Source: a virus (Duplodnaviria; Heunggongvirae; Uroviricota; Caudoviricetes). From it: a stretch of DNA of 40,690 nt. The notes beneath the pieces are model-generated. The model was not told the DNA's origin. It was given only the letters and a program-made list of their open reading frames with translations, and made no database searches. The position numbers were made by a program, and so were the translations under genes. The stretch lies in the IMG/VR virus record IMGVR_UViG_2541047843_000008. One strand, given 5' to 3'. Positions 2,697 through 40,690 of the stretch are shown in pieces. Within the stretch, counting starts at the first letter, position 1, and each line of letters begins with the position of its first letter.

Positions 2697-3087
2697 CGTC
2701 TTTTCTCCCCGGAATTAACTCGCGTGGATTATCGGAACGGTGATAGAGCCATATACCAATACGCACAGCGACAATTGCTGACACGAATGCGCCTGCAGAG
2801 AAAACAATCCCTTTTTCAAAAGAGTCCTGCGTGATGGTAGGGATCAGGCTGGCTATGCCGATAAGAATTGATGCTGCTGGTTTGTAAAAGAGAAGGCCGC
2901 AAAGAAAGCTGAGCATCGACAGGAGCACCCGGCGACGGATGGGGTACTCTACTGCAGAGGTAACAAAAATTACCGCCCCAGCCAAAGCCCCTAAAGCAAC
3001 CTCCGGAGGGACACCTGCAATAACTGCAGCAAGAGAACCAAAACTAAGCAACTGATTTAATTGCTCACTTGTTACTTGAGCAGACAT
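2683..3087 (-). CDS. Holin (three predicted TM segments, charged C-terminus)
   Basis: Three hydrophobic helices and basic/acidic C-terminal tail; first gene of lysis cassette. Confidence 0.6.
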   Translation of the reverse strand: MSAQVTSEQLNQLLSFGSLAAVIAGVPPEVALGALAGAVIFVTSAVEYPIRRRVLLSMLSFLCGLLFYKPAASILIGIASLIPTITQDSFEKGIVFSAGAFVSAIVAVRIGIWLYHRSDNPRELIPGRKDDGNA

Positions 3088-3366
3088 ACTTTCTCCTGTT
3101 TACTATCTATAAGCCAGTCAATTATTGATGACTAAACCCGCATAGTAAACCATATATGAATCATTATTGTTCCATATCATATATCTCAATAAAAGTACTA
3201 ATGATTTTACAGAACGAGCCAGCAGAGTGGGGGCAGTTGTACAGGAACCATAGACTTAATTTTGTATTTAATAATGCTATGGTGTAATAAACCTGAACAT
3301 GTATTTAAAATACGTACTGATTCATGATAGAATTCAAAGATAACTTTTCACCAACTCAGTTTTTGA

Positions 3367-3395
3367 TGCCCGCAATATTTTGCGGGCTTTTTTTT
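3367..3395 (+). terminator. Rho-independent terminator, plus-strand orientation only
   Basis: Stem GCCCGCAA / TTGCGGGC followed by 8 T on the plus strand; abuts the tailspike stop. Confidence 0.5.
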
Positions 3396-6300
3396 AACGT
3401 TCTTCCAGAGACTGAACCCGCTCTTTTATCTTATCCATTTCTCTGCGCTGCCATGCTGCCTCGATATAGAATAAGAGATCAGGTCTGACCCCCCATCTAG
3501 ATCCTGCTGGCGTTATTTCAACGCGCTCAATGATGTCTTCCATTACCATCACTGGATTATCATCCTCATCAACAATGATGCTCCCGTCATTATCAGTCAG
3601 CGGCATTTCCCTTTGGCCAGTAATGACGTCATCATATACTGCGGGATAATCGTCATAGCAAAGAAAGGCATAGCGGCATGTTGTGCTTTCTTCTTCCATG
3701 AGTCCGTGAGAAATAAGAACATCACGAAGTTGCTGCGCGATTACACCATGATGTATCCTCGCCCCTTCTTCCCCCTTTATAGCGACAGCGTTCAGCCATT
3801 TATAAGCGATATACCTGACGTCACCCCAGGCATCCAGCAATGCTTCGTCAGGAGAGACAGGCTCTGTCTTTAATGTTCCGTCACTGGTAACCACAGGATT
3901 GGAGCCAAGATAAACTGTCGAGAACCTGTTTCCCGGACCACCAAGAGCATTTACATTATCAAGATAAGGTTTAACATCTCCGTTCTCAAAAAGATGTTCG
4001 AGTGCGTTATATACCGCGCGACGTGGAGTACTGCTTCCGGAACCATGCAACGTTATCATTGCACCATCTGCTGAAGACGTTGTTTCACCGCCGCTAACGA
4101 TTAATCTCTGAGCGGTAACATCATCAGACGGTACTTTCTTCGCAATAATGGCGTAATTACCCTCAAGTTTGACTTCCGCGCGAACTTGTCCTGATGTACC
4201 TGCATGGACAGTCAGTGACTGGACGGCAACATCATCTGTGAAATCAACGGGTACAGGAACCGTCCTCACGCCTGACGTCGACATAAAAGTAGGAAGCGTT
4301 CTGTTAGGAGTGGCTCCGTAGACAAAATCCCTTGAAACAAATTCTTCCTGTTTAATTTTCACCCTGAAACAATACAAATCAGCCGGGTGACCATCGTGAA
4401 CATAAGGATATTTTCTGTTGTTATCCCCTATGCTCCATGGGTTTAGAAAGTCTTCCCCACCGAAAATGTAGTACAGCCAGTTGTCTTTGATACAAACTGA
4501 ACCAACACCAACCGCAGAGTTAACTATTCCGCCCTGATAAATCTGATCAGTAACATTAACCCACTCTACATTATCCAGACTCCACTCATTGACGTTAACT
4601 CTGGTCATAAATGTTCTTGGATAATTTCCTGCATAACGGTTATCAGGTTCTCCTCCTTCCCACTCACCAAATGCGCGCTCACTGCCAAAAATAATCAGCT
4701 CATCGCCAACTTTGGCAAAAGGAAGGTTTGAGTGATGAACATTATTTGGGAAGCGAAGAGAATTCCATGATGTACCTAAATCAGAGCTTCTGTGCAATGA
4801 ACTACCGGGTTGAGTACTTAATGTCCCCCTGGTCGTCAGATACAGAATGCCATCATAATATTTTACACATGGCTCAGATGCATTCGCCTCATATTCTACA
4901 GGTATGCGTCTGCGAACAAAGCTACCAGGAGAACCGAAAGCATCAGAGAAATAGAGTATCCCAAGCTCGCGTGGACCAATATCACCATTATGGTAGCCAA
5001 CAGCAAAACTGTTATCGCTAATCGTCGCAAAACTGTGAATCTCAGTAACAGGAGTGCTTCCGTCAACAAAAGAAGGAATAGTTCCAAGACTGGTTTTTCT
5101 CCATGGTGACGAGTGAAATGATGTGCCAAAACTCCAGTATCTACCCTCGTTATTCTGATCCACATCCTGGGTATTTTGCGTCGTAACTGTAAAGGTATTT
5201 TTATCAATAACAGTAGTCACCGTCATATTCCCGGTAACACCTGTAACACCAGAGTTTGAGAAGTTGACAAAATCACCAGCAAATAATCCGTGATCAGTAA
5301 TGCGAATATAAGCGACTTGCTGATTTGCTGCTTTCGTTATACCACCATAAACGCGAAGGCTGCGACTCATTGGGCGATCCCACAACTCTGCAACCTGCAG
5401 TTTATTTCCTCTCACGGTCCGCGTCTCAATTACAGCAAAAAGGCGATTTCTGACAACCCCCATACTCATGCAGTGATAGTTAACTGTGGGATAGTTTTCA
5501 TGTAAATCTGTAAGCCATTCCGGCGTTGTCCAGGTCTTCCCGTCATCTCCTGAGCGAACCCATGCAACATGGAGGTTATTTACACCATGGCGGTCTCCAG
5601 CCATAAAAGGCGCATAGATGACATTGTCATATACAAACGTTTTATCCTGCGTCCAGGCGTTGTACCACGGTGTATCTGTAATTTTAAATAACTCTCCCTG
5701 GATAAAATCTTCAGAAGCATAAAAAAGAGGCTGGCCCGGTATTCTCTCAAATAAAAAACGAGCATTTTTAAATCGACTGACATCCGGAAGAGTTGATACT
5801 TTAAAAGTAAGCCCTAATCCGTCAATTTTATAACCTGGAGATGAGGCTTCAAGGCACGCGCTTATTGCAGTGGAATCGTCATTTATACCATCACCAACAG
5901 CTCCAAAATCTTTGGGGCTAATAGCATCACGCATTTTATCCTGGAACGTTCGGTACACAGCCCCAGAACCATACTGAATAAACCAACCAAAACCACCAAC
6001 AACCCCGGCGATTGCAGCATCGACATAATTACGCATTGAGCGATTATTTACAGCGTCCTGCTCAAGTGATGGATCTGCAAGGTTAGAAATTTTGTTTTGC
6101 TTTGCATCGTAATATTTTGCAAGCAAAGATGGTTTCATCAATGCACGTCTGAACCACCCAAAACATTGCTGGATCAGCATCGTCAGGTAGTCAAAAGCAT
6201 CTTCATGCACTTCGGGGAAAAATTTTCCCTGATTGCGAAGGTCTGTCTCCTGCACTACATCAAGCACACGATCTATCGTAATTCGCCATCCAGCAGCAAG

Positions 6301-6513
6301 CGGAGACGGAAGAACAACAGAACCGCCACTATAAGTGCCCGCCCCAGTTACCGTATAACCGGTATCCAGAACCAATTCTGTTACGTTCCCGTTCAGGTCA
6401 GACACCTGAACAACCAGGTCGGATTTTTTGAAAATACGGAAGGTATACGGAAATGATGTCGTAACGCCGTTACCTGTGTATTCGTTGTGGTCAACTTCGG
6501 TTGAGACCGTCAT
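3394..6513 (-). CDS. Tailspike/tail fibre: T7 gp17-like N-terminal anchor, depolymerase domain with sialidase-type Asp-boxes (candidate endosialidase), C-terminal intramolecular chaperone (S74-like) domain
   Basis: N-terminal ~120 aa with gp17-like pattern; DFGAVGDGINDDS; Asp-boxes SGDDGKTW and SSDLGTSW; C-terminal VTSDGTLKTEP...HHGVIAQQ chaperone-like region. Confidence 0.85.
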   Translation of the reverse strand: MTVSTEVDHNEYTGNGVTTSFPYTFRIFKKSDLVVQVSDLNGNVTELVLDTGYTVTGAGTYSGGSVVLPSPLAAGWRITIDRVLDVVQETDLRNQGKFFPEVHEDAFDYLTMLIQQCFGWFRRALMKPSLLAKYYDAKQNKISNLADPSLEQDAVNNRSMRNYVDAAIAGVVGGFGWFIQYGSGAVYRTFQDKMRDAISPKDFGAVGDGINDDSTAISACLEASSPGYKIDGLGLTFKVSTLPDVSRFKNARFLFERIPGQPLFYASEDFIQGELFKITDTPWYNAWTQDKTFVYDNVIYAPFMAGDRHGVNNLHVAWVRSGDDGKTWTTPEWLTDLHENYPTVNYHCMSMGVVRNRLFAVIETRTVRGNKLQVAELWDRPMSRSLRVYGGITKAANQQVAYIRITDHGLFAGDFVNFSNSGVTGVTGNMTVTTVIDKNTFTVTTQNTQDVDQNNEGRYWSFGTSFHSSPWRKTSLGTIPSFVDGSTPVTEIHSFATISDNSFAVGYHNGDIGPRELGILYFSDAFGSPGSFVRRRIPVEYEANASEPCVKYYDGILYLTTRGTLSTQPGSSLHRSSDLGTSWNSLRFPNNVHHSNLPFAKVGDELIIFGSERAFGEWEGGEPDNRYAGNYPRTFMTRVNVNEWSLDNVEWVNVTDQIYQGGIVNSAVGVGSVCIKDNWLYYIFGGEDFLNPWSIGDNNRKYPYVHDGHPADLYCFRVKIKQEEFVSRDFVYGATPNRTLPTFMSTSGVRTVPVPVDFTDDVAVQSLTVHAGTSGQVRAEVKLEGNYAIIAKKVPSDDVTAQRLIVSGGETTSSADGAMITLHGSGSSTPRRAVYNALEHLFENGDVKPYLDNVNALGGPGNRFSTVYLGSNPVVTSDGTLKTEPVSPDEALLDAWGDVRYIAYKWLNAVAIKGEEGARIHHGVIAQQLRDVLISHGLMEEESTTCRYAFLCYDDYPAVYDDVITGQREMPLTDNDGSIIVDEDDNPVMVMEDIIERVEITPAGSRWGVRPDLLFYIEAAWQRREMDKIKERVQSLEER

Positions 6514-6617: not shown

Positions 6618-6632
6618 TTACCTTTCAGGTGA
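6618..6632. promoter_or_regulatory. Operator-like palindrome variant TTACCTTTCAGGTGA
   Basis: One-mismatch copy of the recurring TTACCT-N3-AGGTAA palindrome, between the tailspike start and a plus-strand moron. Confidence 0.4.
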
Positions 6633-7013: not shown

Positions 7014-7104
7014 ATTTACATCGCACTCCTCTTGTGCCATAGTAATCGGGCACTGGCAAAATCCAGTGCCGGGATTGGTCTCCCGGATTACTAAGTGGCG
7101 CATA

Positions 7105-7127
7105 CCACGCCAGACGTGGTTTTTTTA
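7105..7127 (+). terminator. Rho-independent terminator after the small antirepressor-like gene
   Basis: Stem CCACG / CGTGG with 5-nt loop followed by 8 T. Confidence 0.5.
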
Positions 7128-7284
7128 TGCGTATAGCACAGTCATGCCAGAATTATGGTGGGCTGAATGGGGGTCCGAAAGGACGCCGGTACCACTTAGG
7201 CCGGTAAGACCAACTCCGTTCAGTTCACCACCATCTGATTGGTCTCAGCGGTGGTGATGTAATTCGCTAAGTGGAGACGCCATC

Positions 7285-23452: not shown

Positions 23453-23745
23453 TCCTGTTCACTGGCCTCTTTGGCCATCTTCAAATACTGTTCAGGGCAA
23501 TGCGCCATAACGCGCTGAAACAGTTCCAGCGCCAGATTGCGTTGCCCCTCATTAAATGCCATTGCCATAGCATCCATCGGAGAGATAGCGGAAAACACCC
23601 GGCCTTTCTCCAGCACCGACCAGACAACGCGACGCCCCTGTTCACTGCTCATGACAAAGCGAATGTCATCAATTTCACGCTGCTCCATGTCACGTTGCTT
23701 ACGGGCGTTTTCTTCTTTCAGTTGATCGTCTTCGTAATCTGTCAT
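23449..23745 (-). CDS. Hypothetical protein between portal and scaffold
   Basis: 98 aa, overlapping start/stop with neighbours. Confidence 0.4.
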   Translation of the reverse strand: MTDYEDDQLKEENARKQRDMEQREIDDIRFVMSSEQGRRVVWSVLEKGRVFSAISPMDAMAMAFNEGQRNLALELFQRVMAHCPEQYLKMAKEASEQE

Positions 23746-25421
23746 TGTGATTGCCCACCCTGACCACTAACTGCATTCGCCATAGCTGACAAAACACTCG
23801 GATCCGAAGTTTTAGCTTCGCTTAGCGTCTTGGCGCCCTGTGCCGCCGCCATCCCCATCGCCATCATTTGTTGCTGCTGTTGCTGCTGTGCCCGTTGCTG
23901 GCGAGCCTGCTCAACCTGTTCCTGCGGAACAATGACGGTTGGAGACACTCCGGACATATCAGCGAATGCATCGATCGCCTGATCAACGTTGAGTTTGTCG
24001 AGAGCTTCTGGTTTCGCTTGCGCAAGTTGACCAATGAAGTTAACCGTGGACGCCAGACTGGACAGGCCGATAGACTTCTGCGCCTGAGCCATGACGGAAA
24101 TGTATTCGACCTTCAGGGGCATACCTTCCATCACGTCTGGCGGTGGCGGCAGCATGTTTTTACGCACCATCATCGAGAAAGAGCGGTCAATGAGAGGATT
24201 AAGACATTCGTCGTTCAGACGCTCCAGAACCGGCCCCAACATCAGAAGTTTTTCTTCTTTCATTTCGATCACCGCTTCAACAGGCATCGAGCGGGTATTG
24301 ATGTTCTGCAACATCATGAACAGATCGACAAAGTAGGCGCTGTTAATGATTTGACGAGTGTCCTGAATGTCTGCCACCAAATCTGCTGTACTGGGGTTAA
24401 CCAGATAAGCAGGCCTGAAACCATCCTGACCAGTAATCTGATCGATATACGTGATGTCGCCAGGAAGAAGGGAGGCACGCTGATTCTTGAGGGAAGTCGG
24501 AGCAACCATCGGCGGATTGGTGGCTTTATCAATCAACTGCGACTTGCGCTTCTGGAGAAGCTGCAATGCCTTAACAGGTCCAAGCGCCAGCATACCCGGG
24601 CATGATGATCCATAAACATCTTCGCCGTTAACTTCCCAGCGCGGAGCCATAATTGGAAACTCATCGAATCCGGACTCACGCAACAACTTGTCGTTATCGC
24701 CACCAACCTCGTAATAAACCGATTTGAATGGCTTGTTCTTGCTATCCAGCTTCGATGTATCGCGGTCAATGTTCGGGTAAACCGAATGCATCACTTCAAT
24801 CCACTTCTCGTAGGTTCCGCTTTCCCACATGCTTTTTACGGATTCGCTGACGTTATTTAGCCCGAACTCCTGAACAAGCTGACGAACAGTCATAGAGAAC
24901 TTGCGAAAACAGGTGTCCACACTGCCACGAGGTGAGTTAGCCAGGTAGTAACTGCCTATCGGGAATGGCATTGTGCGAATGATGTCCTCGTCATCCTCCA
25001 GCACTGCCATTGCACCAGTGCTGTATGTGCCGAGGCTTCCGTATAACTGCGGCAGCGACTGATAGAGATTCGACTTATTGAACATATCGTTCATGCGGTT
25101 CTGCACCGCCTCAAGCCACAACTTAACAGGGCCATAATCCATCATTTCAGGATCTGGCGTAGCCAGGCGAAACCACGGACGCGCGGGGCTTGTGATGCCT
25201 GACATCATGCCGCTGGCGAGAGTGCGCGCCGCCATAGTCCCGGTCGAATCAATAATGCGTGTATTGCGTCGATCGTTACGGTTGGCCTCAGAAGTCAGAA
25301 AGCGGGAACCACGCGGGTTGATGTAATCACTCAACTCGCGCCAGTGCGGCTCGAACGACTGACGCTCGCTTTCAAGTTGTGCGAACTGTTTGTTCAATCG
25401 CTCTTTAGTTGTTTCCGCCAT
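23742..25421 (-). CDS. Portal (head-tail connector) protein, T7 gp8-like
   Basis: 559 aa; Gln/Met/Ala-rich C-terminal tail as in T7 gp8 as recalled; GGAG SD. Confidence 0.8.
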   Translation of the reverse strand: MAETTKERLNKQFAQLESERQSFEPHWRELSDYINPRGSRFLTSEANRNDRRNTRIIDSTGTMAARTLASGMMSGITSPARPWFRLATPDPEMMDYGPVKLWLEAVQNRMNDMFNKSNLYQSLPQLYGSLGTYSTGAMAVLEDDEDIIRTMPFPIGSYYLANSPRGSVDTCFRKFSMTVRQLVQEFGLNNVSESVKSMWESGTYEKWIEVMHSVYPNIDRDTSKLDSKNKPFKSVYYEVGGDNDKLLRESGFDEFPIMAPRWEVNGEDVYGSSCPGMLALGPVKALQLLQKRKSQLIDKATNPPMVAPTSLKNQRASLLPGDITYIDQITGQDGFRPAYLVNPSTADLVADIQDTRQIINSAYFVDLFMMLQNINTRSMPVEAVIEMKEEKLLMLGPVLERLNDECLNPLIDRSFSMMVRKNMLPPPPDVMEGMPLKVEYISVMAQAQKSIGLSSLASTVNFIGQLAQAKPEALDKLNVDQAIDAFADMSGVSPTVIVPQEQVEQARQQRAQQQQQQQMMAMGMAAAQGAKTLSEAKTSDPSVLSAMANAVSGQGGQSQ

Positions 25422-25435
25422 TTCAATGACTCCGG

Positions 25436-25642
25436 TTACTGACCAAGCAGCGTTTTACCGCTGGTATTAGCGGTTGATGTGTCACCCTGAGAACCGGTAA
25501 GCAGCGTAGAACTACGACCAGCAGCAGCGCGACGGCGACGAGTTTCTTCGTCGCGGGCATCAACAACGGCGGCATCCTGCTCCTGTGGTGCTGCCTGAAC
25601 TTCTGGTGTTGCAGGCACTGACGGTGAGCTACCCATGCACAT
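25436..25642 (-). CDS. Small hypothetical protein preceding portal
   Basis: ATG with a GGAGTCATTGA translation-initiation region that is duplicated in front of the portal gene. Confidence 0.4.
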   Translation of the reverse strand: MCMGSSPSVPATPEVQAAPQEQDAAVVDARDEETRRRRAAAGRSSTLLTGSQGDTSTANTSGKTLLGQ

Positions 25643-25710
25643 ATCAATGACTCCGTACGCAATTAAATTATTACCAATTTAACCACATATGATTTATTTA
25701 TCGTAGATAG

Positions 25711-25747
25711 TTGACATTTAACGCACGAATTATTACCTTTCAGGTAA
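25711..25747. promoter_or_regulatory. Promoter-like region (TTGACA) with operator palindrome TTACCTTTCAGGTAA upstream of tRNA moron and portal operon
   Basis: TTGACA hexamer at about 25711-25716; perfect palindrome at about 25733-25747. Confidence 0.5.
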
Positions 25748-26069
25748 GCAAATGGTTCATTCCGGTTATTAACCTGACTGGCTTGTCGTTAAATTGAACA
25801 GGTGGAGTGAGCTTTTATTTTGAGCAGTACGGCGTATGGCACATGCGCCGATAGCGGTCTGGATACGTTTAAGGGGCACCCTCCCTTGCTCGGGCAAACG
25901 AACCAGGTAGCCGGAATGTGCAAGTCGAGCGGTTTTATTCCGCGCACGGGGATTCACCATCCCGGCGATTCGGTGTGACGCCTCGGAAGAGACGAGGGTA
26001 CAACGATGAGAGCATTTATGGAGCCGCGACAAAGTGTGGTGCCTTAACAGGCTAAGTGCTCTCAGCGTT

Positions 26070-26146
26070 GTGGCATTAGCTCAGTCGGACAGAGCAACCG
26101 CCTTCTAAGCGGTTGGTCGCAGGTTCGAATCCTGCATGCCACGCCA
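26070..26146 (+). tRNA. tRNA-Arg (anticodon UCU, reads AGA), phage-encoded
   Basis: Cloverleaf read by hand: acceptor GTGGCAT/ATGCCAC, D-arm GCTC..GAGC, anticodon loop CUUCUAA, T-arm GCAGGTTCGAATCCTGC, discriminator G, CCA end. Confidence 0.9.
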
Positions 26147-26189
26147 GAATCACGCCTAAGGACCGTGATGCCAGAAGTTCCAGGTGCTT

Positions 26190-26232
26190 GGCGGTGATGG
26201 TTTCCCTTGAAGGACTATCACCGCCCTTTTTA
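26190..26232 (+). terminator. Rho-independent terminator after the tRNA
   Basis: 9-bp stem GGCGGTGAT / ATCACCGCC followed by CTTTTTA. Confidence 0.5.
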
Positions 26233-26349
26233 CAGCAGGACGCCATTGCGATGACTTCATGCTGTAAACCAGTACAGCCACGGAAGGCATAACTCATTGC
26301 TTCCAGTTCGCCCGGTTCGCAGGGCATTTTTTTAAGGTGAGATTAGACT

Positions 26350-26721
26350 ATGAGTGAAAAAGACATTGAATCTGAAATTCAGGCTAAAGGTTTAGCCGCG
26401 CCGCGCGTTACGCCAGACCATATCGAGAGCATTATTGCTCAGGAGGCATATTTCACAGCAGAAGATGGTGCCTTTGGCGTAGCCATAAAAGCGAAACATA
26501 CTGGCGGAGAGGTAAACTACCAGCCGCACGAATCACTTTCTCTGCTGACGTTCTGCGTCCTGGTGCTGCGCAACGGCTTCACCGTCACCGGAGAGAGCGC
26601 CTGTGCAAGCCCGGAAAACTTTGATGCAGAAATTGGTCGGAAGATTGCCCGACAGAATGCTGTAAACAAAATCTGGATGCTCGAAGGTTACTTGCTGAAG
26701 CAGAAGTTAAGCGAGCAATAA
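26350..26721 (+). CDS. Hypothetical moron protein downstream of the tRNA
   Basis: ATG with AAGGTGAG SD; opposite strand to the flanking packaging and head genes. Confidence 0.55.
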   Translation: MSEKDIESEIQAKGLAAPRVTPDHIESIIAQEAYFTAEDGAFGVAIKAKHTGGEVNYQPHESLSLLTFCVLVLRNGFTVTGESACASPENFDAEIGRKIARQNAVNKIWMLEGYLLKQKLSEQ

Positions 26722-26811: not shown

Positions 26812-28287
26812 TTAAGCATAGGGATCGTAATCTGTAATGGCCCTTCCCTGCTGGCTTTGCTGTCCTGGTATATTTATGCGTTTCGAGACCGGGAAAGCAA
26901 ACGTCAGCAGTAGCGCATCGCCTTTACCCGGCGAACGCCCAAGCCGCTCCTTGATATCTTCCTTCGGTTCGATAACGATTTTACCGTCCACTCGAACTTT
27001 GTACTCTGCCGCCGACAGGTCGTCCGCTGTTTCCTGGTCATCCAGCATGCCGCCCAGCCTCAGCCATGTCTTGCATGAGTTGAACATCTCCCCACGCTTG
27101 TTGAGCATCTGCGGGTCAGTAGACGCGCCACCGAACGGAACAAGTTGCCATGTACGACCCCAGCCGTCACCGATTGACTTCAAACCGGTTCCGTAACCGA
27201 AGTCGATGAACACCGCGTCAGCCTGATACTGGTCTTCAAAGTCAGCGATACGCTTCGCCATAATCAGATCGTCGGTAGTCTTGTTGCCAGTCCACAGCAC
27301 CTTACTGTGTAGCCCCTGCCGCAGGTATATCACAGCGTCATCAACGCCGGAGTATGCCGGGTCAACGCCGATTATCACCGGAGCATGTGCAACCTGCGCA
27401 GCGGTTACCACCCGTTTCATTGCCTCGTCAGTAAGACCGGTAGGGATAAACTGCAATTCAGATGCATCAGGGAATATGCCACGCACACGGATTTTAACGA
27501 AGTCGCTGTCTTCCCCGTAGTCATCAACCCATTTCTGCAACTGCTGTTTGTTGGTACCTTCCACCGTCCGACTGTCAATCTGCGCAGTTTTCCAGCGGTG
27601 TTTATACTTGCGGAAACATTCACGGAAACGTCCGGTATTACGCGTCGGGTTTCCGAACGCCACCCAGATAATCTCAGTGTCTTCGTCCGTTAGCGCACCT
27701 TCGGCAACTTCCCACACCAGATCCGCAATGTTCGACGCTTCATCAAACACCACGATGATGCGTTTGCGCTCGTTGTGTAGTCCGGCGAACGCCTCAGTGT
27801 TGTGCTCAGACCAGGGTATTGCGTCAGCACGCCACCGCTTGTCGTGCCCAGGGTCATTGCTGTACATCGCGGTAGCGGTACAGGTAAACCAGTCTTTCGT
27901 GATAGCAAGGTTCGACCACTTGATAATTTCCGGCCAGGTCTTCGTTCGTAGCTGGTTGTCGGTGTTGGCGGTCACCACGACCTTACAATCCTCGCAAGTG
28001 GACATGCCCCAGTTGATCAGCATTGAGATGAATGCGGATTTACCAATACCGTGACCAGAAGCACGTGCCAGCATAAGCGGCTGATATCTCGTCTCTGGAT
28101 TCTGCAGGTGATCACGTATCTCTCGGAACGCATCGGCCTGCCACTGACGTGGACCGGTGGCATGTGCCAGTTCAGTACCCTCTTCCCCCCACGGGAACGC
28201 ATAGAGGGCATAGCCAAGCGGATCGTGAGTGAACCCTGCAATATCCTCGATCAACTGCTCTTCAGGAGATAACGCTGTATCTGTCAC
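26812..28287 (-). CDS. Terminase large subunit
   Basis: 491 aa; Walker A-like ASGHGIGKS; acidic nuclease-type C-terminal half; GTG start overlapping the TerS stop. Confidence 0.9.
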   Translation of the reverse strand: MTDTALSPEEQLIEDIAGFTHDPLGYALYAFPWGEEGTELAHATGPRQWQADAFREIRDHLQNPETRYQPLMLARASGHGIGKSAFISMLINWGMSTCEDCKVVVTANTDNQLRTKTWPEIIKWSNLAITKDWFTCTATAMYSNDPGHDKRWRADAIPWSEHNTEAFAGLHNERKRIIVVFDEASNIADLVWEVAEGALTDEDTEIIWVAFGNPTRNTGRFRECFRKYKHRWKTAQIDSRTVEGTNKQQLQKWVDDYGEDSDFVKIRVRGIFPDASELQFIPTGLTDEAMKRVVTAAQVAHAPVIIGVDPAYSGVDDAVIYLRQGLHSKVLWTGNKTTDDLIMAKRIADFEDQYQADAVFIDFGYGTGLKSIGDGWGRTWQLVPFGGASTDPQMLNKRGEMFNSCKTWLRLGGMLDDQETADDLSAAEYKVRVDGKIVIEPKEDIKERLGRSPGKGDALLLTFAFPVSKRINIPGQQSQQGRAITDYDPYA

Positions 28288-28880
28288 TGATTACCATCCT
28301 GACGTTCTTTGAGTCGCTTCCTGGCTGCTGCTATGCGATCAGCAATTGTCACATTCACATTAACATCCAGACGTTCTTTGAACGCGTTGACATCAACATG
28401 CTTACCAATCAGCTCAAGGTTCTTCACCTTGTCAGGCCATTTAATTTTTTTGAGGATTGTCTCTATCGAATCCTCGTTCATGTTCATGATGGTCGATGAC
28501 AGATCAAAGCCACTAAGCGTAGTGCGCCAGATTTTCGGCCACTCGCGGATTGGCTTAAGGCTCCCATCGTCGTTGAGGATGTCGATCACGTCCATCTGGT
28601 CGATCTCCACCAGGCGCATGAGAACGTAATCAGCACTGACGCGCATTCGTTTGTTGCGCTCCTCCATCAACTCGGCAATCCGTTTTTGAATGCGTTCATC
28701 GCGCATCATGACACTGGCTTTAACTGCCGCTGTATTTGGGGAGAATCCTGCGTTAATCGCTGCCTGAGTCTGGTTTTCAGGCGTTTTGATGTATGACTGG
28801 CAATAAGCCTCCTGCATTGCTGTTAGTGGCTTAAATTGCGTTGATTTGCGTTTATAGGTTTTAGGTTCAGCAGGCATCAT
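28284..28880 (-). CDS. Terminase small subunit
   Basis: KPLTAMQEAYCQSYIKTPENQTQAAINAGFS matches the common terminase small subunit N-terminal HTH pattern; start taken at internal ATG after a terminator. Confidence 0.7.
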   Translation of the reverse strand: MMPAEPKTYKRKSTQFKPLTAMQEAYCQSYIKTPENQTQAAINAGFSPNTAAVKASVMMRDERIQKRIAELMEERNKRMRVSADYVLMRLVEIDQMDVIDILNDDGSLKPIREWPKIWRTTLSGFDLSSTIMNMNEDSIETILKKIKWPDKVKNLELIGKHVDVNAFKERLDVNVNVTIADRIAAARKRLKERQDGNQ

Positions 28881-28887
28881 AACCACC

Positions 28888-28916
28888 GTGGTAATAGTTA
28901 CCGTTGTGGTAATAGT
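28888..28916. repeat. Tandem direct repeat GTGGTAATAGT x2 in the terminase leader
   Basis: Two 11-bp copies 18 bp apart, between an upstream terminator and the TerS start. Confidence 0.5.
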
Positions 28917-28931
28917 ACCATGCAAAATAAA

Positions 28932-28955
28932 GCCGCCATAGTTGGCGGCAGTATT
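28932..28955 (-). terminator. Rho-independent terminator separating nin-like genes from the packaging/late operon
   Basis: Stem GCCGCCA / TGGCGGC with 4-nt loop, U-run (UUUAUUUUG) on the minus-strand side. Confidence 0.5.
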
Positions 28956-29188
28956 CAAAGTCCATCAAATTCATCGTAAAAACTCTCGTCAAGATACCCT
29001 TCCCATTTACCGCGAATGAAAATTACATCCTCGCCGCAAGGGTGCTGACTGTCGATAACTATATCCCTCCTGGCGCAACCATACTTATGCATGAGAAATT
29101 TAACCTCTTTCGGAAAATTTGCTGAGTTATCTCTCATATCTTCAAGGTCGTAGCGTATTTTTGGCATAACACCTTCGTGACATGTCAC
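28955..29188 (-). CDS. Hypothetical protein
   Basis: 77-aa ORF in nin-like block. Confidence 0.4.
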   Translation of the reverse strand: MTCHEGVMPKIRYDLEDMRDNSANFPKEVKFLMHKYGCARRDIVIDSQHPCGEDVIFIRGKWEGYLDESFYDEFDGL

Positions 29189-34774: not shown

Positions 34775-35359
34775 ATGAAAAGTATCCAGGACGTCCGCAG
34801 GCAAAATCTCAACGACTTGATCGACCGTGAATTCAATGGTGTTCAGACGCGGATGGCAGAAAAACTTGGAACTCAGGCAAATCTGGTAAACCGCTGGGCT
34901 CTTGGCAAGAAGGTTATCGGCGACCAGGTTGCACGAAAAATTGAAGCTGCCGCCAATAAACCCCGTAACTGGCTTGATATTGATCGTTCGCTTTCTCAGG
35001 AGGGTTTTCAGCCTGTCGGCCCGAGCGATATAGGTCAGCTGGCGGCTCACAATCTGGAACGCTGGATGAGCGAAAGCCGCGACCTTTCAACACAGGGAAA
35101 ACTTCACCGCGCATCCGGCGTCGCCCAGGTGACAATCAGCCGCCTGTTAAACAATGAGGTCAGCGTTTCCATTTCCACCCTGGAGAATGTTGCATCCGCA
35201 TTCGGGCGTCACGGATATGAACTACTGATTCACCCGCACGACCCTGCGACTATCAACTATGACCGCTCACGCTACGCATTGTTACCCGAAACCGAGAAAG
35301 CAAAGATCGAAAGTTACATTGAATTTGTCATCAACCAGAACGAAAAAAGCAAACAATAA
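34775..35359 (+). CDS. Repressor candidate with two XRE-type HTH domains and no LexA-like autocleavage domain
   Basis: HTH-like segments VQTRMAEKLGTQANLVNRWALGKK and LHRASGVAQVTISRLLNNEVSVSISTLENVASAFG; own terminator downstream. Confidence 0.6.
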   Translation: MKSIQDVRRQNLNDLIDREFNGVQTRMAEKLGTQANLVNRWALGKKVIGDQVARKIEAAANKPRNWLDIDRSLSQEGFQPVGPSDIGQLAAHNLERWMSESRDLSTQGKLHRASGVAQVTISRLLNNEVSVSISTLENVASAFGRHGYELLIHPHDPATINYDRSRYALLPETEKAKIESYIEFVINQNEKSKQ

Positions 35360-39439: not shown

Positions 39440-40690
39440 TTATTCCCCCGCCATCCACTTCTCAAACTTCGACGGGGAGAACGGAATCAGATCCGTATGC
39501 TCCCCGTCAATCCATGAATCAATCATATCGGCCCACTGCTGCAACATGTAGGCGCGCTGTCTGGCGTATTCCGCTTTGTTATATACGGCGCGCACACCTT
39601 TCTGCTCATGTGCCAGAGCCTTTTCAATCCAGTCTGAAGGATAACCAGCCTCATGCAACAACGTACTGGCTGTACGGCGCATATCGTGTACGGTGAAGCC
39701 CTGAATATGCTCACCATCTTCATTTATTATTTTCACCGTTCTGTCGATCAGAGAGTTCAGCGCGGCATTAGATAATGGCTTCCGGAAATTGTAACGACCA
39801 GGAACCAGATATTCACTTCCACCAGCGCACATCTGCAACCCGACCAATATATCCTGTGCCTGTTTAGGCAGGTAAATAACGTGCGCCCGGCTTCCCTTCA
39901 TGCGGTCTGGAGGAATTGTCCATGTCCATTTTTTAAAATCTATTTCATCCCACGTTGCATTGGTGAATTCGCCCTTACGAACCATAGTGATAAGCACCAG
40001 TTTTAAAGCCATTTTCATAGTGCCCATAGCACCAATGGCATCCAGCGTGCGGAAGAACAGGCCAATTTCTTCTGGTGTCAGTGTTCGCTCTCGTGGTTTA
40101 AATATGGCGATAGACGAAGGTTTAATGTCAGCCGCAGGATTAAACAAACCATGACCACGGTCATTGGCGTGACGGTATACGCTACTGATGATCTCCCTGG
40201 CCTGCACTGCTGTTGCCCGACCACCGCGTTCGACAATCCGGTCACACAAATCACGAACCATCGATGTGGTAATTTCAGCCATCATTTTGTTGCCAAGAAC
40301 CGGAAGTATGTCACGGTCGATCACCGCCTGCTTCATTGCGCGGGTACTGTCAGCCAGGATGACGTGTTTCATATAACTGTCGGTATGTACCGCAAACGTC
40401 TCGGCACCACGAATCTTTTTGATACCGTCACGTTTAGCCGCAGCCGGTGACTGGCCTGCTTTAAGCAGCTTCTTTGCAGCAATCAGTTCTTCTCGCGCTT
40501 CTGCCAGGCTGATACCGTCACGCCCATACTGCCCGATTACCAGTGTTTCGCGGCGACCGTTGATACGGTAGTCATAGCGAAACGAGACCGTGCCTGACGT
40601 AAGCACAGCTACATACAGCCCGTCACGATCGGAGACCTTGTACAGTTTGTCCTGCGGCTTGAGGTTTTTTAATTTTGTATCGGTAAGCAC
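39440..40690 (-). CDS. int: Tyrosine integrase (P4/IntA-like); start coincides with window edge
   Basis: N-terminus MLTDTKLKNLKPQDKLYKVSDRDGLYV typical of this integrase family; C-terminal catalytic region with R...HDMRRT...Y pattern. Confidence 0.9.
   Translation of the reverse strand: MLTDTKLKNLKPQDKLYKVSDRDGLYVAVLTSGTVSFRYDYRINGRRETLVIGQYGRDGISLAEAREELIAAKKLLKAGQSPAAAKRDGIKKIRGAETFAVHTDSYMKHVILADSTRAMKQAVIDRDILPVLGNKMMAEITTSMVRDLCDRIVERGGRATAVQAREIISSVYRHANDRGHGLFNPAADIKPSSIAIFKPRERTLTPEEIGLFFRTLDAIGAMGTMKMALKLVLITMVRKGEFTNATWDEIDFKKWTWTIPPDRMKGSRAHVIYLPKQAQDILVGLQMCAGGSEYLVPGRYNFRKPLSNAALNSLIDRTVKIINEDGEHIQGFTVHDMRRTASTLLHEAGYPSDWIEKALAHEQKGVRAVYNKAEYARQRAYMLQQWADMIDSWIDGEHTDLIPFSPSKFEKWMAGE

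Follow-up and report, generated by a model that had tools for sequence, protein, structure and literature searches.

Phage HK022 carries a put site in each of its two early operons, and put RNA suppresses downstream terminators in cis, depending on the zinc-binding domain of the RNA polymerase beta' subunit. EAR of Bacillus and other processive-antitermination RNAs are structured leaders at the start of operons that give read-through of distant terminators. The C4 and CI immunity RNAs of phages P1/P7 and P4 are matured by RNase P. The put RNAs are small, consisting of about 70 nucleotides (nt) folded into two stem-loops (PMC9378689). Here we analyse a stretch of viral DNA of 40,690 nt (IMG/VR record IMGVR_UViG_2541047843_000008, Caudoviricetes), called the window below and numbered from its first letter, in which a long leader stands directly 5' of a transfer RNA gene, tRNA-Arg(UCU). 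An earlier reading of the bare sequence, referred to here as the original prediction, had drawn attention to this tRNA and its leader in the interval between the terminase and portal genes. As judged by sequence comparison, the ~240 nt at 25830-26069 are a member of a conserved family of folded RNAs and not a mere tRNA leader. The family is a real, widespread and structured one of enterobacterial phages that is apparently undescribed. By its position the RNA would be of a known kind, that of phage early leader or antiterminator RNAs, and its architecture appears to be new. The elements of the RNA and the tRNA that adjoins it are these:

25830-25850, plus strand: helix H1, CGGCGUAUG / GCA loop / CAUGCGCCG, nine pairs, 97.5% of alignment cells paired
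25854-25862 with 25903-25911, plus strand: helix P2, enclosing a variable insert (25863-25902)
25912-25924, plus strand: conserved unpaired segment CGGAAUGUGCAAG, invariant in the nine copies found by BLAST
25929-25943, plus strand: variable hairpin P3 (GCGG / CCGC), read from the sequence; its length and sequence differ across the family
25949-25952 with 25960-25963, plus strand: helix P4, loop UUCACCA, followed by an invariant GGCG at 25964-25967
25955-25958 with 25972-25975, plus strand: pseudoknot of the loop CACC with GGUG, showing covariation
25981-25997, plus strand: helix P5, CCUCG / GAAGAGA loop / CGAGG
26001-26014 with 26057-26070, plus strand: long hairpin P6, with a variable tip (26015-26056)
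26070-26146, plus strand: tRNA-Arg(UCU) with encoded CCA (ARAGORN; Rfam RF00005)

The fold was derived from an alignment (A2) of 117 distinct copies made with MAFFT. The alignment supports five helices, one of which is the pseudoknot; the long 3' hairpin P6 is a sixth helix and was tested apart. Over 30 pairs, 96.5% of the cells are paired, a share that drops to 26-45% if the 3' partners are shifted by 1-3 columns. Compensatory changes, altering both sides of a pair, are present at 13 pairs and in 320 cells, and the observed covariation score was reached by none of 500 column shuffles, a control that yields no probability because the aligned sequences share descent. Columns 50:62 in H1 read GC in 79 sequences and AU in 36, and columns 48:64 are also compensatory. 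In P2, which contains two invariant G.U pairs, columns 76:132 read CG in 60 sequences and UA in 57. P4 shows CG in 85 and GC in 29 sequences at columns 183:195, and AU in 71, CG in 26 and UG in 19 at columns 185:193. The pseudoknot columns 188:208 are CG in 91 and AU in 26, with zero exceptions, and four of the five pairs of P5 have compensatory changes (218:229, CG 59 and GC 44). The original prediction of a GC-rich, structured leader is thereby given substance: its guanine plus cytosine (G+C) content is 57.5%, against 48.8% for the whole window, and it contains a discrete structured RNA with a covariation-supported fold. A long-range alternative proposed by RNAalifold, which pairs GCACAU on the loop side of H1 with AUGUGC, was rejected in favor of the local H1, as both of its segments are invariant and H1 has compensatory changes.

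The copies in this alignment were collected with an exact 19-mer as the probe, and the invariance of that 19-mer in A2 is a consequence of this choice. A second, independent probe taken from the block of P4 and the pseudoknot, filtered with a covariance model of the RNA (R1, which gives the window a score of 136.5 bits, E 2e-39), recovered 33 further members, 31 of them full-length. AUGUGCAAG is unchanged in 29 of these 31, and each exception is one base off. Among the 31, variation is seen in the 5' half of the 19-mer (the 3' strand of P2), and two members have a wholly different 5' domain. The most constant part of the RNA is thus made up of AUGUGCAAG, P3, P4 with the pseudoknot, GGCG..GGUGUGAC and P5.

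The 3' module formed by P6 is found in 105 of 138 distinct loci, and the length of its variable tip ranges between tens and a few hundred nt. Out of 26 distinct strand pairs, 20 have 8-10 of 10 positions paired, where controls have 5-7, and compensatory changes occur at four positions (the compensated pairs being GAGAGCA/UGCUCUC, AAGAGCA/UGCUCUU and AAGCGCA/UGCGCUU). The last P6 pair in the window involves the first base of the tRNA. A boxA-like UGCUCUUU in the 3' strand of P6 was dropped as a candidate signal, the segment being base-paired with covariation. Just upstream of H1, phiV10/epsilon15-type loci have the sequence GGAGTGCGCTTCCAGGTGTG (degenerate in the window as GGTGGAGTGAGCTTT.. at 25800-25829; L008 ~1454-1500, L007 ~2020-2046). 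This stretch is near-identical to the P6 3' strand with its tail GGAGTGCGCTTCCAGTTGTG in other members, e.g. L041, which suggests either a scar left by a tandem copy or a joint at which modules preferentially recombine.

Several observations fix the strand of the molecule. Two G.U pairs are present in 117 of 117 sequences and a third in 114 of 117; since these would be A.C mismatches on the opposite strand, the RNA can fold from the plus strand only. All 51 of the adjacent tRNAs lie on the RNA's own strand. Of 114 distinct loci, 59 have a promoter-like site on the plus strand within 200 nt upstream of the RNA; the opposite strand and a downstream control each yield 6 of 114. A search of both strands revealed no conserved reading frame: at most 44 of the 117 sequences are open across the core in any frame, and the spacing of conserved blocks spans all modulo-3 classes (62/30/25 and 55/39/23). 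Open reading frames (ORFs) of at least 60 amino acids do overlie the RNA on the minus strand in 107 of 155 loci and are annotated in some records; these are by-products of conserved, G+C-rich sequence. Among such annotations is the hypothetical protein mEp460_037 on the opposite strand (L006, 1943-2311), which is probably spurious, as is the ORF annotated in cdtI (L003, 3282-3737). The 13-codon leader ORF suggested in the original prediction does not hold up. Its ATG at 26006 lies inside the P6 5' strand and its frame runs into the variable tip; neither frame nor start is conserved. The ATG is present in 69 of 138 distinct copies and lacking in the other 69. Fifty of the copies with the ATG encode MRAFMEPRQS.., all of them with one tip variant, and the rest of these encode unrelated products of 5-53 amino acids.

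The family is distributed well beyond the window. A BLAST comparison of 25690-26069 with phage records recovers a core of ~25829-25991, often extending to 26069, in other settings. The carriers include P1 and its relatives, the lambdoid phages cdtI, mEp460, Ayreon, 2H10 and Stx2a and Stx2c phages, and phages of Klebsiella, Salmonella and Enterobacter. None of the phage matches listed has a corresponding annotation, at most an overlying "hypothetical protein". Of 5426 complete E. coli genomes, 1840 carry the RNA, at 2474 places, 554 of which are on plasmids; one "hypothetical protein" is annotated among the 60 matches listed and the others have no annotation. E. coli ML35 has a 100% match to the 250-nt leader query. 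In the species-representative genomes of GTDB, the exact 19-mer probe found 24 stretches, in Enterobacteriaceae or Erwinia apart from one chance match and one 1.7-kb contig labelled as a metagenome-assembled genome (MAG) of Bacillota (L033). In IMG/VR the same probe found at least 120 contigs. The copy on the Bacillota contig, like one in the Stenotrophomonas phage BUCT708 (L012), is likely a case of host misassignment or bin contamination.

The RNA is a mobile module independent of the tRNA: 105 of 155 copies have no adjacent tRNA. In 30 of the 155 loci the 3' end of P6 adjoins a tRNA-Arg(TCT), the arrangement seen in the window, and in 18 P1-like loci a tRNA with a CAU anticodon (tRNA-Ile in the annotation of P1) ends ~15 nt before H1. 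Some copies for which no tRNA was called (L014 and L022) have T-arm-like sequences, CCGGGTTCGATTCCGGG and GCTGGTTCGACTCCAGC, ~60-110 nt past P6, and L022 additionally has a D-arm-like GCTCAACGG..GAGC after P6. These arms may belong to decayed or unusual tRNAs missed by ARAGORN, and tRNA-like 3' ends may exceed 50 of 155.

The sequences that surround the RNA in the window suggest how it is expressed. The following elements were identified:

25711-25739, plus strand: predicted sigma-70 promoter, -35 TTGACA (25711-25716), 17-nt spacer, -10 TACCTT (25734-25739)
25733-25747: operator-type palindrome TTACCTTTCAGGTAA, overlapping the -10 hexamer
26190-26231, plus strand: intrinsic terminator-like hairpin of 14 pairs (stem 26190-26225), seven of them G-C, followed by CTTTTT
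26310-26333, plus strand: weak second hairpin GCCC-N8-GGGC followed by A and seven T, read from the sequence and uncalled by the terminator scan
26350-26721, plus strand: ORF of 123 amino acids, Phage_gp49_66 family (PF13876, N4 gp49 / Sf6 gp66), E 2.3e-35

The promoter has 9 of 12 consensus matches, which is below the threshold of a strict scan, and was picked up by a relaxed one. Related phages, too, have TTGACA-17-TACCTT upstream of their copies of the RNA, at distances that vary. In the window the transcript is expected to start near 25746. A terminator on the plus strand was found in 46 of 48 distinct loci of the phiV10/epsilon15 context, 184-751 nt after the start of the conserved 19-mer, by a finder that accepts loops of up to 8 nt and is blind to the long-loop hairpins of lambdoid loci. 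The promoter scan, the palindrome and the 14-pair hairpin agree with the promoter/operator region and the separate terminator that the original prediction had placed upstream and downstream of the tRNA.

The palindrome is one of a set. With one mismatch allowed, TTACC-N5-GGTAA occurs 13 times in the window (at 6618, 6999, 8014, 25733, 28880, 28898, 32362, 32424, 34320, 34657, 34705, 35417 and 35479), against 0.56 expected, and none of 100 shuffles reaches 13. The sites lie on both sides of an ORF resembling a helix-turn-helix repressor (34775-35359), around the isrK and C4 RNAs and before the RecT/YqaJ recombination genes, and they are probably the operator set of the prophage repressor. The sites at 28880 and 28898 fall within the called start of the small terminase ORF. 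Because a repressor-type operator overlaps the -10 hexamer, the tRNA/leader unit would be an early, repressed one and not a moron expressed in the lysogen; it probably stays off in the lysogen and comes on early once the phage is induced or infects a cell. The same reading is suggested by the relatives, since the RNA follows the left operator and promoter (OL/PL) in lambdoid phages and sits in the C1-controlled ban operon in P1. The label "moron" that had been given to the unit is therefore apt in that it has its own promoter and terminator and is inserted against the flanking operon, and probably inapt as regards expression in the lysogen. In its usual sense it is probably the wrong label.

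Across the family, the RNA is almost always found at the 5' end of a transcription unit with co-oriented genes downstream, and a co-oriented gene lies within ~1 kb downstream in all 13 annotated records examined. In lambdoid carriers the RNA is just beyond the cI repressor gene. In cdtI, the stop codon of cI is followed by an intrinsic terminator (2894-2911), a TTGACA-16-CATAAT promoter (11/12 matches) and, ~45 nt after the predicted start, H1. The operators overlapping this promoter match the ones located between cI and cro, which identifies the region as OL/PL. From the predicted start, the leader extends over ~590 nt before the first ORF is reached, and it contains no further promoter-like site. 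By this gene order the RNA occupies the place of nutL in lambda, or that of putL in HK022 and HK639. No N gene is annotated or was found after PL in the lambdoid carriers; Q is present. Their first ORFs encode a protein of 120 amino acids without a family match and a DUF2303 protein. A relaxed scan of the interval from the RNA to the first ORF detected a plus-strand terminator-like hairpin in 33 of 57 distinct lambdoid loci (2 of 57 on the opposite strand) and in 26 of 39 distinct loci of the phiV10/epsilon15 type (0 of 39 on the opposite strand). In P1 and its relatives, the RNA is located between trnI and ban, within the ban operon, which is C1-controlled by annotation. The epsilon15 record (L005, NC_004775) annotates RNase III, repressor and IHF sites at a remnant of the RNA.

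In the window, the weak hairpin at 26310-26333 stands directly before the ribosome-binding site of the ORF at 26350-26721, which is likely the protein cargo of the tRNA/leader unit. The ORF has a weak match (E 0.0068) to PDB entry 9e4w, "anti-CBASS 4 (Acb4)", and its counterpart in Klebsiella is annotated as DUF2829. Its product may be a sponge for signalling nucleotides, and the gap between terminase and portal would then be an early counter-defence locus.

A search of Rfam 15 with E up to 10 returned only the tRNA and noise for window positions 25400-26500 and nothing beyond noise for cdtI 2880-3560. The original prediction had taken a covariance-model match and conservation as the marks of a genuine leader element; no such match was found, yet the leader is strongly conserved. 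No match to the RNA was found in the literature by four conserved strings, by keywords or in one large motif catalogue, of whose 408 supplement files the first 200 were covered, in a search that did not extend to King et al. 2011 (further antiterminator RNAs). The lack of a match to put in Rfam is uninformative, because Rfam 15 also finds no match in the putL-like region of HK639, where a putL-like antiterminator RNA is annotated at the position equivalent to that of our RNA. Like the put of HK022 and the putL-like RNA of HK639, the RNA directly follows a repressor-controlled PL in lambdoid phages without N and has terminators downstream, and like put it is confined to enteric hosts. Unlike put, it has a core of ~170 nt with five helices including a pseudoknot, and a long 3' hairpin in addition, and the RNA as a whole is three times larger. 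It is unlike EAR in having no Rfam match at E up to 10, in its host group and in its phage setting. It resembles the C4 and CI immunity RNAs of P1/P7 and P4 in being a phage RNA in a repressor-controlled operon; those are antisense RNAs of ~77 nt with known targets, whereas our RNA has three times that size, matches no model of the C4 clan and has no target in the window, where no sequence complementary to its conserved segments was found.

Based on these comparisons, we tentatively favor a cis-acting early leader RNA that promotes read-through of terminators, put-like in action and built differently, as a reading that is possible and somewhat short of probable. A promoter whose -10 hexamer is overlapped by the repressor's operator would drive the ~240-nt RNA (25830-26069), followed by tRNA-Arg(UCU), the terminator and the small accessory ORF. 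Cleavage by RNase P at the 5' end of the tRNA would separate the two RNAs and set the 3' end of the structured one, and the tRNA would decode AGA for AGA-rich phage genes. The structured RNA may act in cis on the transcribing RNA polymerase or on termination factors, and transcription would then pass the terminator or terminators before the downstream genes, as with HK022 put RNA after PL. This reading is suggested because the RNA is located behind repressor-controlled promoters with terminators and co-oriented genes downstream, its lambdoid carriers lack N and its hosts are enteric bacteria.

A number of observations weigh against it. The RNA of P1 is in the middle of an operon, 15 nt past a tRNA and not behind a promoter. 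Each phage has one copy of the RNA, unlike HK022 with its two copies of put, and no second copy was found in the right operon of cdtI. In epsilon15, only the upstream leader and H1 are left (~85 nt, 2001-2089), with the terminator and the gp49/66-like ORF kept. The repeated fusion to tRNAs would equally suit a released RNA that acts in trans, and in the window the promoter, the start and the ends of the transcript are predicted ones. With the filters off, R1 has a best E of 0.21 in HK022 (22-40.7 kb) and HK639 (28-40 kb), at a place other than put, and Smith-Waterman scores of the RNA against HK022 putL, HK022 putR and HK639 putL were reached by 32, 198 and 153 of 300 shuffles, respectively. 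A homology to put had been drawn by eye (ACGGCG..CAUGCGUCG, GGUC.GGAUG and AAUG.UGC); it is supported neither by R1 nor by shuffle-controlled local alignment and serves as a lead only. On the evidence available, the RNA appears not to be a member of the put family, though its position and surroundings are those of put.

As to the put sequences themselves, an inverted-repeat search of HK022 for putL and putR returned nothing. They are located in HK022 (L157) on the minus strand from locus position ~6290 downward and on the plus strand from ~7460, and in HK639 (L159) at 6188-6313. HK022 putL and HK639 putL share the block GGCGGGYUCAGGAWGARCGGCAAU and a stem ACGGCGCG..UGCGUCGG. This stem resembles H1 (ACGGCG..CAUGCGUCG), a likeness without statistical support.

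The foremost alternative to cis-acting read-through is that of an early RNA released to act in trans, which would bind or divert a host protein or a defence component as a decoy, sponge or inhibitor and whose position in front of genes would be incidental. The direct fusion to a tRNA on its 3' side in 30 loci, and the tRNA ~15 nt before it in 18 P1-like ones, could give it exact ends through RNase P and 3' processing, and the strongly conserved unpaired nucleotides would suit a specific partner. In phiV10/epsilon15-like phages the unit is short and closed by a strong terminator, and its accessory neighbors are of gp49/66 and DUF2829 types, the weakly Acb4-like ORF of the window among them. We nevertheless consider a trans role somewhat unlikely, given the co-oriented gene that follows in every annotated record examined, the position of the RNA as the sole element between PL and the early-left genes of lambdoid phages and the lack of a complementary target in the window. 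A processing or stability element, a 5' domain that shields early transcripts from RNases or guides the maturation of a neighboring tRNA, would also be in keeping with a place at the 5' end of transcripts, with a tRNA adjacent in a third of the copies and with the RNase III site annotated at the epsilon15 remnant. Simple protective hairpins would need neither a pseudoknot nor near-invariant unpaired segments kept across unrelated phage types, and the majority of copies are without a tRNA, which makes this role quite improbable.

The place in a 5' leader, the covarying helices with a pseudoknot, the near-invariant junction nucleotides and the terminator downstream are features that would equally be expected of a riboswitch-like leader, sensing a ligand and coupling early phage expression to a small molecule. 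Given that the terminator is more than 120 nt past the core (beyond a variable hairpin and, in the window, a tRNA), that no overlapping expression platform is visible and that the downstream genes differ among contexts, such a switch is highly improbable. That the conservation stems from a site at the DNA level or from a gene for a small protein, be it the 13-codon ORF or the antisense ORFs that are annotated in mEp460 and other phages, is hardly credible: the minus-strand ORFs and the shared peptide of 50 copies are set against the missing frame, the ATG absent from half of the copies, and G.U pairs and compensation that point to a single-stranded molecule of the plus strand. Finally, the RNA would represent an unprecedented class of large phage RNA if it were an early RNA set free to neutralise a host defence or to hijack a host enzyme, or a sensor of a small molecule, e.g. 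an immune second messenger, that switches on the counter-defence genes behind it. We entertain this because of the near-invariant unpaired nucleotides, the pseudoknot, the repeated joining to tRNAs and the sponge-like accessory genes behind the RNA in phiV10/epsilon15-like phages, and we regard it as rather unlikely.

The tRNA is an ordinary, already known kind of cargo. Its score of 73.3 bits with RF00005 passes the gathering score of 29, and ARAGORN calls it as the single tRNA of the 40.7-kb window, with the anticodon tct at position 35. The 3' end reads ...CACGCCA at 26146, giving GCCA with the CCA encoded. The gene is the same one, with no difference, as the annotated tRNA-Arg of E. coli O157 typing phages 9 and 10, which are 98.1% identical to the window at this locus, and the novelty is the RNA fused to its 5' end. 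The RefSeq record of phiV10 (L001, NC_007804) leaves the tRNA unannotated and places on the opposite strand a hypothetical protein, PhiV10p04 (3477-3728), that is probably spurious. Over the 43 ORFs of the window, AGA and AGG are used at 7.1 and 4.2 per 1000 codons, about three times the rates of E. coli, which makes rare-codon decoding a reasonable rationale for the tRNA.

Escherichia phage phiV10 and typing phages 9 and 10 match the 1.2 kb surrounding the tRNA/leader locus at 98% identity, and because of this identity the window is assigned as a phiV10/epsilon15-like (Uetakevirus) prophage. Its genes relevant here are as follows:

23742-25421, minus strand: portal gene (PF12236, E 1.6e-187)
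flanking the locus, minus strand: small gp3-like ORF
26812-28287, minus strand: large terminase ORF, from the annotation of its phiV10 counterpart
28284-28958, minus strand: small terminase (PF03592)
39440-40690: integrase, at the end of the window

The original prediction of an intact tRNA-Arg(UCU) on the strand opposite to the terminase and portal genes was correct on both counts, as the ARAGORN and Rfam calls agree and the flanking genes are all on the minus strand. So was its view of the tRNA as cargo and not the attachment site, with the integrase far away, and the codon-usage check that it had proposed came out with the AGA and AGG rates given above. Elsewhere in the window, Rfam models identify the Hfq-binding RNA isrK (67.7 bits) and, directly after it, a C4 antisense RNA (61.2 bits), both on the plus strand at 7050-7235. 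The pair appears to be an immI-like antirepressor control region of the P1/P7 type in a phiV10/epsilon15-like podophage, and operator sites adjoin it.

If the family is indeed undescribed, a folded RNA stands unannotated in P1, in Shiga-toxin phages and in prophages carried by about one in three complete E. coli genomes, and some records carry spurious ORFs where the RNA should be annotated. As the head of early operons, the RNA may explain how early terminators are passed in lambdoid phages that lack N. To our knowledge, the put RNAs of HK022 are the sole known way past early terminators that requires no protein. If read-through by the RNA described here is true, it would be a second, structurally unrelated RNA of this kind, and RNA-only control of RNA polymerase would have evolved more than once.

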